This document shows, one piece after another, positions 44,216 through 61,529 of a stretch of DNA of 64,000 nt. Positions within the stretch are counted from its first letter, which is position 1. The number at the start of each line of letters is the position of its first letter. Both the position numbers and the translations under genes were made by a program. A model generated the notes under the pieces. The model saw only the letters and a list, made by a program, of their open reading frames with translations. It did not search any database and had not been told where the DNA came from. The stretch comes from Nannocystis sp. RBIL2. Lineage in GTDB: Bacteria; Myxococcota_A; Polyangia; Nannocystales; Nannocystaceae. The stretch spans positions 1,382,151 through 1,446,150 of the forward strand of contig NZ_JAPNJW010000002.1 in the NCBI RefSeq assembly GCF_026626745.1. The letters run 5' to 3'.

Positions 44216-44620
44216 GCGCGGGTGGGGTCGGGCAGGTCGACTTGCGCAAGGCTTCGAGGGCCTCAGCGCGCTCGTGCAGCAGGCGCTGGGCAAGGATCCG
44301 CTGTCGGGGGCGTCGTACCTGTTCACGATTCGGCGGCGGACGACGGCGAAGGTGCTGCCCCGCCTGGCGATGAGCCGGCGAAGAAGAAGACGGGGCACGG
44401 ATGTTCGCTACCACGGACAGGAACGTGAGACGCCCGGCGAAAGGGGAAAGGGGCGCTGATCATGGAGGGATATGGCCGGCAGCAGCGGCAATCAGACCGT
44501 CAAACGCAGGTCAGGGGCCTCCGGAAACCGCGGCCTCATGTCGAGCGAGGCGCATGGCGCGGACGAGAGCGAACCGCCAGCGGACGCTGACCACGACGTA
44601 TTCGTGGCGGCCGACCGCAG
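44215..44620 (+). mobile_element. IS66 tnpB internal fragment plus about 350 bp co-duplicated flanking sequence (copy 1 of a segmental duplication)
   Basis: VDLRK-FEGLSALVQQALGKDPLSG with a 1-nt deletion. Duplicated at 60690-61010 apart from a 60-bp indel. Confidence 0.55.
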
Positions 44621-58700: not shown

Positions 58701-59029
58701 CGGAGAAGCCCCCCGAGACGACGGCCGAAGTCCCAGAGCAGATCAAGCCCGACACCGTCGTTGCCGACGCCCGCGACAAGCTGCTGGCAGCCATCGGCGC
58801 CGAAGCCCAGCACCTCGCGGAGAAGTCCGCCGGCCAGGCATCCACCGCCCTGGCGGAGCTCGCACACGCCTTTGCCCTGGTGACCAGCCCCAACCCCGCA
58901 GCCGCCGGCTTCACCGCTGGTCGGCGATATGTGGAGGAGCTCGCCCCGCCTAACGGTTCTCCCATTGGCGATGACTACATCGTCATCGACGTGCCCAGGC
59001 CGGTCATCACCTACTATCCCCGTACCTGA
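58646..59029 (+). CDS. Leader-family small protein C (127 aa)
   Basis: Begins [15 protein letters not shown]. Its body, [27 protein letters not shown]..., recurs twice in protein D. Confidence 0.5.
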   Translation: [127 protein letters not shown]

Positions 59030-59325
59030 GGCCAGAACTGCGCCTGCGCAAGGCCGCGGCGGGCATGGCGAATCAGTCACCGCCCCAGAGCACGGGGCGG
59101 GATAAGAAGTCGCGGCCCCACTGGACTGCAGGTCGGGAACACCAACTACATGATCACCAAGGCCAAAGAACAGACCCGAGATCCGGGCCCGGAGCTGCGA
59201 GCCCGAGCCTGGTCATTCGGCGCGCAGCGCGTGACGGGAGGCATGGCGGGCGGCCTCGATCTGCACCGGCTCTGGGGAGCTGCCTTAGACGGTGGAGACG
59301 GACGCGCGCGCGCTCGCCGATGTAC

Positions 59326-59505
59326 TTCCGAATGAAGATGAATCCGGCGCCGGTGGGAGTATCAGTGCTCCGGCAAGGTCCCGTGAGCGGCTCGATTCCC
59401 CCCTGGCCTCACGCCTGTGTGAAACTCGACACAAGGAGACAGACACATGACTGACGTTAACTCCAAGGGCCCGGCCCCAATTCAGGTCCCGGTGGCCGAC
59501 AGCGC
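59326..59505 (+). repeat. Modular 5' element, copy D (core, 40-codon uORF, RBS, leader; hairpin absent)
   Basis: CGATGTACTTCCGAATGAAGATGAATCCGGCGCCGGTGGGAGTATCA...ACACAAGGAGACAGACACATGACTGACGTTAACTCCAAGGGCCCGGCCCCAATTCAGGTCCC. Confidence 0.7.
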
Positions 59506-60001
59506 GATCCCGGAGGCCGAGGGCGGCCCTGCGGCACCCACCTCGAACGCCGTCGCCGACGCCCGCGACAAGCTTCTGGCAGCCATTGGCGCCGAAGCCC
59601 AGCTCGTTGCGGAGAAGTCCGCCGGGGATGCGTCCAAGCCGCTCGCGGAACTTGCCCGCGCCTTCAACAATGTGACCATCAAGAACATGATCACCGGTAC
59701 GTCGCAAGCGGACGTCGCCCTGCTCGTGGTGCCTGCAGACCGGGGAGGATTCGAGGGCGCCTTCGCGCGTGAAACCCAAGTGAGGCTGTTGACGGCCATC
59801 GGCGGCGAAGCCCAGCACCTCGCGGAGAAGTCCGCCGGCCAGGCATCCACCGCCCTGGCGGAGCTCGCACACGCCTTTACGCTAGTAACCAGCCCCAGCC
59901 CCGCAGCCGCACGGATCGCGCTCGCGCCCGCAAGCGGCCTCACATTGATGAACGAAGTGGCGATCGACGGGAGTGTGACGGTCACGGTTAGATATCTCTG
60001 A
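59447..60001 (+). CDS. Leader-family mosaic protein D containing an EF1A-type GTPase fragment
   Basis: [37 protein letters not shown] matches the eukaryote/archaea EF1A motif ([26 protein letters not shown]..QTREH), not bacterial EF-Tu (NMITGAAQMDGAILVV). It is flanked by two copies of the protein-C-like segment. Confidence 0.5.
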   Translation: [184 protein letters not shown]

Positions 60002-60602: not shown

Positions 60603-60689
60603 CGACGGGCGGCGTGTCCGCAGTCCCGCGGGCAGGCTCACGCGGGCTCACGCGGGCACACCGCTCCGCTCGCCGTGCCCCGTCGTGAC

Positions 60690-61010
60690 GGGCAGGTCGA
60701 CTTGCGCAAGGGCTTCGAGGGCCTCAGCGCGCTCGTGCAGCAGGCGCTGGGCAAGGATCCGCTGTCGGGGGCGTTGTACCTGTTCACGATTCGGCGGCGG
60801 ACGACGGCGAAGGTGCTGCCCCGCCTGGCGATGAGCCGGCGAAGAAGAAGACGGGGCACGGATGTTCGCTACCACGGACAGGAACGTGAGACGCCCGGCG
60901 AAAGGGGAAAGGGGCGCTCCGGAAACCGCGGCCTCATGTCGAGCGAGGCGCATGGCGCGGACGAGAGCGAACCGCCAGCGGACGCTGACCACGACGTATT
61001 CGTGGCGGCC
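60690..61010 (+). mobile_element. IS66 tnpB fragment plus flanking sequence, copy 2 of the segmental duplication
   Basis: Near-identical to 44215-44620. Confidence 0.5.
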
Positions 61011-61529
61011 GACCCTTCACCGTCGCTCTCACTCCCGCTGTCCGTGGCCGTCGTGGCTCGCCCGGCCTTACCTGATCGCCTACCTCGGTGACGAGGACCG
61101 AGCCGACCGCTACCTCGACCAAAAGCAGGCGCACTTCGCCTGCGTTGGCTATCCCCGCACACTCGAGGACCGGGCGCATGTTCTCTGCGACTCGGTCCTT
61201 CCGGTCGACGATACCTTCAGCAAACCCGGTATCCAGGGCAACCCTGCCGCAGCCAGGGAACACCATGCCGGCTGGAGCGCGGTGTTCGCCGGTGAACCTC
61301 CACCACCCGGGGCCGACCCGGCGTACTTCTTCGTGCACGAAGCCCTCGAGGCATGCCTGCCCCACGCATCCCCCGGCCTCGTCGAACGCCTCCGCAGTGG
61401 CTGGCAAGACGTCGCGGATGCCTTTCTTGACGAGGCCATCCACAAGACGAGCGAGGTCGGCGCTGTGCTCACCGGCGCAGGAGCGCCCGGCCGCCCCGCC
61501 TCGCCGAGCTGCTCGGCGCGCTCGCGCGG

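Follow-up and report, generated by a model that had tools for sequence, protein, structure and literature searches.

An alveolate-type EF1A fragment in a Nannocystis gene points to an undescribed family of modular carrier-payload proteins

A small open reading frame (ORF) of the myxobacterium Nannocystis sp. RBIL2, orfB (59447-60001, + strand; 184 residues), carries a short piece of a eukaryote-type elongation factor, EF1A, between two copies of a conserved module. It lies in the stretch of 64,000 nucleotides analysed here and called the window (contig NZ_JAPNJW010000002.1, positions 1,382,151 to 1,446,150 of the forward strand; coordinates below are those of the window). The reading we favour, with a probability of about 0.6, is that orfB is a two-unit member of an undescribed modular family, that it was brought to Nannocystis horizontally on an island bracketed by IS66-related repeats, and that it acts through a carrier and an attached peptide. 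Judged from their sequences, orfB, its neighbour orfA and a nearby cassette holding a piece of ribosomal protein S1 are members of a large, so far undescribed superfamily of modular small proteins, numbering about 500 or more.

orfB and its EF1A piece

The layout of orfB is that of two units in series on the + strand: an N-terminal 'GPAP' box (59447-59494), called the leader in an earlier sequence-only reading of the window and found in the same or nearly the same form at 58646 and 54182; a first H module (59549-59665), located by tblastn and hmmsearch; the EF1A piece (59678-59764; 29 residues, 78-106), delimited by sequence matches; a second H module (59765-59890); and a recurrent C-terminal payload (59891-59998), which clusters with P0102 and P0111 from Streptomyces and with P0258, of the B-type subfamily described below. 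A strong Shine-Dalgarno sequence, AAGGAG, stands 7 nucleotides (nt) ahead of the ATG. The gene has an exact database match (P0001; NCBI OV203_34040, recorded for Nannocystis sp. ILAH1), annotated as a 'hypothetical protein', and it is indeed the mosaic ORF that the earlier reading described. In a contig index, exact look-ups of proteins from the window gave no match. AlphaFold2 (AF2) predicts helices for H module 1 at residues 34-57 and 63-82, with a predicted local distance difference test score (pLDDT) of 70-86, and leaves the EF1A piece unstructured (pLDDT <50, residues 84-101).

On the matches obtained, the piece is of eukaryote type and, more precisely, of alveolate type. Its counterpart in the G domain of alveolate-type eEF1A is the switch-II helix with strand beta4 and the next loop, and over this core it is identical at 27-28 of 29 positions to apicomplexan-type eEF1A, at 23 of 29 to EF1A of other protists, at 17-19 of 29 to human, yeast and archaeal EF1A and at 14 of 29 to EF-Tu of E. 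coli (the human, yeast and E. coli strings being entered by hand). Outside the family, the best matches in a search of 5.8 billion proteins were the eEF1A of Gregarina, Toxoplasma and Eimeria (E ~1e-7). Against PDB sequences, the phmmer matches to EF1A, Hbs1 and eRF3 from archaea and eukaryotes have E = 4e-6 to 5e-4 and those to bacterial EF-Tu 0.04-0.3; the NCBIfam models agree (EF-1alpha 1.8e-5, EF-Tu 3e-3, CysN 0.17). The sequence-only reading had seen here, at 59640-59780, a fragment of the EF1A/eRF3/Hbs1 kind with GTSQAD and GEFEAG-like elements rather than one of EF-Tu or CysN. That identification stands: the core falls within this interval, the best match is eukaryotic EF1A and not a bacterial CysN or EF-Tu, and the similarity holds in alignment, where it spans just 29-33 residues (EF1A positions ~95-131). 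A GTPase orfB is not: its translation lacks the G1 P-loop, G3 DxPGH and G4 motifs, and the Pfam GTP_EFTU match, which covers profile positions 83-106 of 188, reaches 16.1 bits where the cutoff is 26.5.

Two further features had been noted of the segment. Its GC content was said to be lower than that of its flanks, which is weakly true (0.61-0.64 vs 0.68-0.70); the drop at third codon positions (GC3) is small (0.76-0.79 vs 0.81-0.82), so most of the difference comes from amino-acid composition. The flanks were also described as copies about 90% identical to each other, whereas the two copies within orfB share only 21 of 28 residues (75%) and 77% of nucleotides. The pair above 90% is that of the downstream copy of orfB and positions 58780-58905 of orfA, with 27 of 28 residues in common, 99% nt identity over 84 nt and 93% over 126 nt, from which it follows that the 3' half of orfB was recently homogenised with orfA. 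A local EF1A donor was sought and rejected, tblastn with orfA and orfB finding no further EF1A-like sequence in the 64-kb window.

Two observations on related sequences may be recorded here. Three truncated gene models of coccidian-type EF1A (P0014, P0015, P0017) leave the EF1A sequence right after GAFSKE(G), and as all three break there an intron at this point is implied; the bacterial piece ends at the same point, GAF[STA][KR], which may hint that the piece was taken from genomic DNA, or may be coincidence. In an 886-bp metagenome contig from ENA (P0032), the same EF1A piece runs straight into a sequence similar to succinate dehydrogenase/fumarate reductase flavoprotein, GMDMAYRAGAPLRNMEFV, without the family carrier.

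Sharing and conservation of the payloads

The arrangement of module, EF1A piece and module is not confined to Nannocystis. It occurs also in Kitasatospora sp. Xyl93 (P0002) and Streptomyces sp. NPDC058239 (P0003), with piece boundaries within 1-3 residues, and P0090 holds a diverged EF1A piece in the orthologous position. Between Nannocystis and the Streptomyces locus L001 about 40% of the codons of the piece differ at synonymous third positions, with the peptide kept. The S1 piece likewise recurs, with the same derived residues, in a protein of Nocardia sp. NPDC020380 (P0093): 23 codons are identical to those of the window, 17 differ synonymously and 13 non-synonymously, and over the last 21 residues the two peptides agree fully, with 9 synonymous changes in their codons. 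The commonest tail of the family, SRAGGHQVGLCLELEP-stop, differs between Streptosporangium and Nonomuraea at 10 synonymous and 0 non-synonymous sites. In the H modules themselves, differences per codon position run at 0.28, 0.23 and 0.44. Carriers and payloads alike change in the manner of coding sequence.

Across the family, 166 of 346 pieces fall into 42 recurrent clusters, both tails of the window among them, and several clusters include pieces that stand behind H as well as behind B carriers. As identical payloads occur behind either carrier type, they are exchanged by recombination. The composition of the tails is that of ordinary protein segments and not of GC-rich DNA translated out of frame. 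Taken together, the payloads appear to behave as selected peptides that recombination moves between carriers.

The carrier-payload family

Members of the H type were counted in an exhaustive HMMER search of 1.84 billion representatives, with clustering at 50% identity, giving 203 clusters; the B type comprises 288 proteins. An earlier profile search had yielded 53 named matches, all from actinomycetes and Nannocystis, and the named homologues, annotated as 'hypothetical proteins', come from Streptomyces, Kitasatospora, Embleya, Nonomuraea, Nocardia and Streptosporangium. The H carrier is a module of 44 residues with a preceding box, EGIQQIPAQITV or GRGPAPITVP. The B carrier (IPADQVKPEDIGTLSIEYRDG.PV.VVSGG..IPA.L.VVD..GN.VAAYTA) follows an NSKGPAP N-terminus as in the Nannocystis genes; the GPAP box of orfB matches the MSETTPNSKGPAP start of this subfamily in Streptomyces and Kitasatospora. 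H-type members were recognised by an H module behind a GPAP or QQIP box, and orfB has this arrangement; its two modules match the family profile at E = 7e-16 and 9e-18 (orfA has one module), and it ranks 16th of 203 in the profile search.

Behind the carrier come a linker rich in Ala, Gly, Ser, Thr and Pro and then a hypervariable payload of 15-60 residues, occasionally a whole small domain. Units concatenate, with 2-5 H modules in one protein and lengths of up to 809 residues (multi-module members P0080, P0081 and P0082). AF2 predicts a helical hairpin for H (pLDDT 70-86) and a four-stranded beta unit for B (pLDDT 84-91), and no structural neighbours were found for either model. The carriers match no Pfam or NCBIfam model (E <0.01), no PADLOC (anti-phage defence) or PHROG (phage) model and no PDB sequence entry, and by tblastn the family is absent from plasmid and phage collections. 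Keyword and sequence-string searches of the partly accessible literature found no description of it. The genes form arrays of up to ~12 in 15 kb, among transposases, and include frameshifted or truncated members (P0073, P0089, P0128, P0133). Junctions between module and piece are unlikely to be assembly chimeras, since complete genomes carry them. One candidate member, P0161 (2101 residues, 14 weak repeats), was rejected as a repeat protein of the Bacteroidetes type IX secretion system.

Origin of the payloads

Every payload that could be recognised is an in-frame, sense excerpt of another protein: eEF1A, EF-Tu, EF-G, S1, L7/L12, Hsp70, flagellin, pilin, Rhs core, RRM, gelsolin and copper oxidases are represented. 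Pfam searches identified Flagellin_N and Flagellin_C (in several proteins), a complete RRM_1, the HSP70 motif region, GTP_EFTU (the N-terminal G1 region of EF-Tu), Phage_base_V (the oligonucleotide/oligosaccharide-binding (OB) domain of VgrG/gp5), the Gram-negative Porin_4 and the Walker B region of AAA proteins. Payloads from EF-G domain II and S1 were assigned by PDB search, and those from multicopper oxidase, tyrosinase, gelsolin, TPR and L12_N (the N-terminal domain of L7/L12) from precomputed Pfam domains and source names. Others carry labels given by eye: what we take to be EF-G switch I (RGITITSAA..FWKGS) and the N-terminal helix of S1 (FADLFEESLK), and presumed pieces of secretin, ceramidase and rhodanese, an alpha/beta-hydrolase HGG motif and a C2-like VYD.D..PVDDF.GE. 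Pieces of translation factors and their kin (EF1A, EF-Tu, EF-G, S1, L7/L12) recur across the family.

Several pieces of universal proteins look non-actinomycete, amongst them PHVNVGTIGHVDHG, DVILVGGQTRMP and one EF-G piece, whose best PDB matches (6n0i, 4fn5) we take to be Pseudomonas entries. By their similarities, many of the recognisable payloads are of non-host type. Current annotation, which names the genes by their tails, is misleading: "Hsp70 family protein", "multicopper oxidase", "flagellin", "RHS core" and "phage baseplate protein V" are all names under which members are filed.

Two mosaics illustrate how far the combination of parts can go. In Streptomyces sp. NPDC058239 (L001 11015-12427), an H module replaces part of the C-terminal helix of a flagellin, and the C-terminus is an Rhs core end (..DPTGH, stop); this protein and its relatives (L005, P0088, P0095, P0169, P0081) are built of flagellin N and C regions with the H module, and what follows is an Rhs core end, a piece of the VgrG OB domain or further modules. 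These flagellin mosaics occur in non-flagellated Streptomyces, where they are annotated 'flagellin' or 'phage baseplate protein V'. In the Nocardia protein P0093 (L010 10001-10912), pieces of S1 domain 1 and of EF-G domain II stand in one chain with carriers of the H and the B type.

The cassettes and their island

Two further cassettes of the window stand upstream of orfB on the + strand. The nearer, orfA (58646-59029), encodes 127 residues from this ATG and is annotated from residue 18 as OV203_34045; it consists of a GPAP box, an H module and the payload PPNGSPIGDDYIVIDVPRPVITYY, and its tail (PPNGSPIGDDYIVIDVP.P) clusters with P0117 and P0119 from Streptomyces and with P0141. Three copies of the H module thereby lie within 1.2 kb. 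In the S1 cassette (54182-54445; 87 residues), the GPAP box is joined straight to domain 1 of ribosomal protein S1 (Pfam S1, E = 3e-5; PDB S1, E = 2e-19; 72.5% nt identity to E. coli rpsA). Only domain 1 (E. coli residues 20-81) is present rather than six S1 domains, the N-terminal S2-binding helix of S1 is replaced by the family leader, and the GC content is low (0.53; GC3 0.58). The sequence-only reading had counted this as a second fragment of the translation apparatus on the same leader, and rightly so.

All three cassettes share the start region CAAGGAGACAGACACATGAC and an N-terminus of the form MT(D/A)(V/H)... Repeat comparison places an upstream element (GCCGATGTACTTCCGAATGAAGATGAATCC..., also written GCCGATGTAATTCCGAATGAAGATGA...), together with a 5' leader and translation-start region (..GATTCCCCCCTGGCC..CACAAGGAGACAGACAC), at 59316-59446 (+) ahead of orfB; the element repeats at 54041-54118 and 58331-58408, giving one copy before each cassette. 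The translation-start region CAAGGAGACAGA[GC]ACATG and the leader upstream of it are common to Nannocystis and the Streptomyces loci L007 and L008, a conserved start of this kind being a shared trait of family genes. In those loci the conserved 5' leader is ~140 nt long (L007 14123-14265 and 20000-20142; L008 59-201 and 3492-3634) and contains a 10-bp hairpin (GATTCCTGGCC..GCCAGGAATC) with one compensatory pair change, six sequences being too few to judge it; the Nannocystis leaders retain the GATTCC..TGGCC part. Rfam gave no match in the window or in four related loci, leaders included, and a promoter scan no sigma-70-type sites. On the minus strand the upstream element overlaps weak terminator-like hairpins. 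A fourth, partial copy (GCCGATGTAATTTCGGATGAAGATGG, ~54700-54745) precedes a GSCFA-family gene and not a cassette, which suggests either a shared regulatory site or the relic of a lost cassette.

The three cassettes lie on a 16.4-kb island bracketed by a pair of IS66-related repeats, the left at 44250-44616 and the right at 60711-61014, 98-100% identical to each other, with a TnpB_IS66 match in the right-hand region. The same island holds GSCFA, WcbI and glycosyltransferase genes and an ORF of 517 residues (48598-50151, +) with a C-terminal jacalin-like lectin domain (Pfam E = 4e-15) and ~370 N-terminal residues without assignment, itself in a patch of low GC (0.635 vs ~0.70). Truncated IS66 genes occupy 52612-53805 and 60675-61091: a truncated transposase stops 236 nt ahead of the upstream element of the S1 cassette, and a TnpB fragment lies ~670 nt downstream of orfB.

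Gene neighbourhoods

Gene tables and all-against-all clustering of ORFs were used to compare neighbours at 10 loci (9 related loci and the window). No modifying enzyme, RRE protein (RRE, recognition element of RiPPs, peptides that are ribosomally synthesised and modified post-translationally), protease, transporter or secretion gene is conserved nearby, nor is any small gene downstream of the cassettes, an Imm5-like gene being seen in one locus only. No toxin-domain match was obtained in the tails of 15-60 residues. Transposases are often adjacent (IS66, IS21, DDE_5, DDE_Tnp_1, Tn3).

Beside cassette arrays in two Streptomyces loci stand homologous proteins of ~620 residues with C-terminal hemopexin-like repeats and an N-terminal region without assignment (L007 5819-7693, L009 12527-14395), and lectin-like proteins of beta-propeller or ricin type, as well as a C2-domain protein, are found near arrays in L003, L004, L009 and L013. 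A truncated ATP-dependent ligase gene abuts a cassette in L008 (5563-6528), where the called ORF enters the antisense of an H module, and an RNA-ligase-family gene lies ~10 kb from the array in L004 (1-255); a ligase was considered as a conserved neighbour and set aside, as these fragments are inconsistent across loci.

Mode of action and alternative explanations

If orfB is a horizontally acquired family member acting through carrier and peptide, the EF1A piece would have been captured once by the family from foreign DNA or complementary DNA and then inherited and transferred, the capture predating transfer into Nannocystis. The passage of whole family genes between phyla would be the simplest reading, and from the distribution the direction was probably from actinomycetes to Nannocystis. 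The carrier would supply stability or recognition and the unstructured payload would be the active part, perhaps after release from the carrier, most plausibly by imitating a segment through which its parent protein interacts or assembles, so as to interfere or to serve as bait. Carrier-presented mimic peptides are our best guess at the function, one held with modest confidence; the model fits because many payloads are interface segments of their parent proteins. Domain 1 and the N-terminal helix of S1 mediate ribosome binding, the N-terminal domain of L7/L12 binds L10, the terminal helices of flagellin and pilin pieces are assembly interfaces, and the switch II region of eEF1A contacts eEF1B.

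It is worth setting out together the points that weigh against this reading. Apart from the hemopexin-repeat protein in two loci, no non-family gene is conserved beside the cassettes in the 10 loci; and as there is no signal peptide or known export signal, a role outside the cell would be without a delivery route. The EF1A piece can drift, P0090 keeping 15 of 29 residues, so constraint is not uniform. Independent captures from related donors could also give conserved peptides with divergent synonymous sites, which leaves a gap in the argument for purifying selection on the EF1A and S1 pieces; the case for the GHQVGLCLELEP tail, to which no donor could be assigned, is stronger. Recognition of payloads is biased towards famous conserved motifs, a payload detectable by Pfam being present in ~10% of 150 members, and absence beyond actinomycetes and Nannocystis rests on named matches (genome-collection scan, at least 2 loci).

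The main rival is a RiPP-like reading, unlikely in our estimate, in which N-box and H or B form a leader for a modifying or processing enzyme encoded elsewhere, payloads are cores, the EF1A-like one being one core among others, and multi-unit proteins are multi-core precursors. The form agrees: a leader and a hypervariable C-terminus in ~100 residues, many paralogues per genome and array, and members of several units. Purifying selection acts strongly on a C-terminal peptide of 16 residues, Arg is often the last residue of the linker directly before recurrent payloads, and a Trypsin_2 protease lies 1.3 kb upstream in L001; prochlorosin precursors, moreover, can lie far from their enzyme. Against this, the neighbourhoods described above conserve no modifying enzyme, RRE protein, protease or transporter, and the leaders do not belong to the Nif11 or NHLP families, as neither Pfam nor NCBIfam has a model that matches them. 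Some payloads are too large or are whole domains (flagellin ~250 residues, the RRM domain, the S1 OB fold). The position of the first Arg or Lys in the tail is what composition predicts, which leaves Arg before the payloads as a processing site in possibility only, and a link to imiditides through the PIMT gene near L012 was dropped, as the precursors of that type have 30-75 residues and a high content of Gly, Lys and Pro.

Two further accounts would deny the cassettes a function. That the carriers are a selfish repeat in a recombination hot spot, such as a mobile-element end from which a start reads outwards, and the tails decaying read-through, is improbable: transposases are often adjacent, phyletic distribution is sporadic, the upstream element also precedes the unrelated GSCFA gene at ~54700 and broken members exist, but the tails are protein-like in composition, every recognised piece keeps both sense and frame, the same payloads turn up in different genera with only synonymous change, and plasmid and phage collections lack the family. 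The sequence-only reading had proposed a recombination scar; on this account part of an EF1A gene would have come to lie, in Nannocystis, between duplicated leader segments, leaving an accidental, non-functional mosaic. The proximity of three module copies, the IS66 debris and repeats around the cassettes and the slightly lower GC of the piece speak for it, yet it is hardly credible, contradicted as it is by the same architecture and piece in Kitasatospora and Streptomyces. Its supposed duplicate flanks are diverged family modules (75-77% identical), the window offers no other EF1A-like sequence, the tails and the S1 piece are common to actinomycetes, and a coding-type pattern of substitution with a conserved translation-start region favours function. 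Given the shared architecture and the recurrence of S1 piece and tails in actinomycetes, the EF1A fragment arrived within a pre-assembled family gene and not by capture on the spot.

The carrier-plus-peptide reading can be taken further, into doubtful territory. The whole family might be a library of mimic peptides that arose in nature and moves horizontally, each peptide presented by a carrier and excerpted in frame from an abundant, conserved protein of a competitor, prey or predator; selection would keep them for interfering with or baiting, as isolated interface or motif segments, the partners of the parent. The donors would be Pseudomonas-like S1, EF-G and DnaK; Gram-negative flagellin, pilin, porin, secretin, VgrG and Rhs; alveolate eEF1A; and eukaryotic Hsp70, RRM, gelsolin and C2. 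Such a library would be the equivalent, at the level of proteins, of a spacer archive, or else a stock of dominant-negative microProteins directed against other organisms. Quite apart from this extension, if the family is as it appears, soil actinomycetes and at least one myxobacterium keep hundreds of small genes whose active parts are peptides copied from the most conserved proteins of others, eukaryotes included, retained by selection and shuffled between two unrelated carriers. That would amount to a new route to functional peptides, drawn from foreign genes and not from cores evolved de novo, to a new class of inter-kingdom transfer of gene fragments, and to a testable source of peptides that might inhibit translation factors, chaperones and the assembly of flagella and pili.

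Comparison with known systems

Several known systems resemble the family in part. RiPP families such as the prochlorosins (ProcA, with Nif11/NHLP leaders) and the multi-cassette cyanobactin precursor PatE likewise pair a conserved N-terminus with a hypervariable C-terminus in many paralogues, some of them multi-cassette, with cores under selection. Here, by contrast, no cognate enzyme and no known leader family were found, some payloads are whole domains, payloads are excerpts of the housekeeping and surface proteins of other organisms, and two unrelated carriers share them.

MicroProteins are represented in plants by LITTLE ZIPPER and elsewhere by dominant-negative fragments of the Id type, and an N-terminal fragment of S1, in work attributed to Byrgazov et al. 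in 2015, reportedly competes for ribosome binding. As with microProteins and mimicry, small proteins of the family are fragments of larger complex-forming proteins, and S1 domain 1, the L7/L12 N-terminal domain, the flagellin helices and the pilin pieces are assembly interfaces. The known fragments target the parent in their own cell, whereas the parents here appear to be mostly foreign (alveolate eEF1A; Gram-negative flagellin, porin and secretin). With CRISPR arrays and piRNA clusters the likeness is one of layout only, a conserved unit alternating with captured foreign sequence and abundant or highly expressed donors seeming over-represented; unlike these, the units of the family are protein-coding with codon-level constraint, their pieces in frame and conserved as peptides, and neither cas genes nor a reverse transcriptase or integrase turned up in the window or related loci.

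Polymorphic toxin systems, orphan C-terminal cassettes included (Rhs, CdiA; Zhang et al. 2012, PMC3482391) share with the family a constant N-terminus, C-termini swapped by recombination and arrays in variable islands beside mobile elements, and several payloads of the family are the Rhs core end itself (..DPxG[HN], stop). Unlike toxins, the payloads are too short and stop exactly where an Rhs toxin would start, and there are no immunity genes and no trafficking or secretion domain. The ALF repeats of the Streptomyces umbrella toxins (UmbC; PMC11062931) are, like H, two-helix units of ~44 residues, rich in Ala and Leu, arranged in series and found in Streptomyces; H differs in having, by sequence search, no Pfam or PDB match and in occurring in small proteins without coiled-coil stalk or toxin. 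Similar in part to RiPP precursors, polymorphic-toxin cassettes, microProteins and, in layout, repeat-spacer archives, the family fails the defining tests of these four and, in our judgement, lies outside the known kinds.

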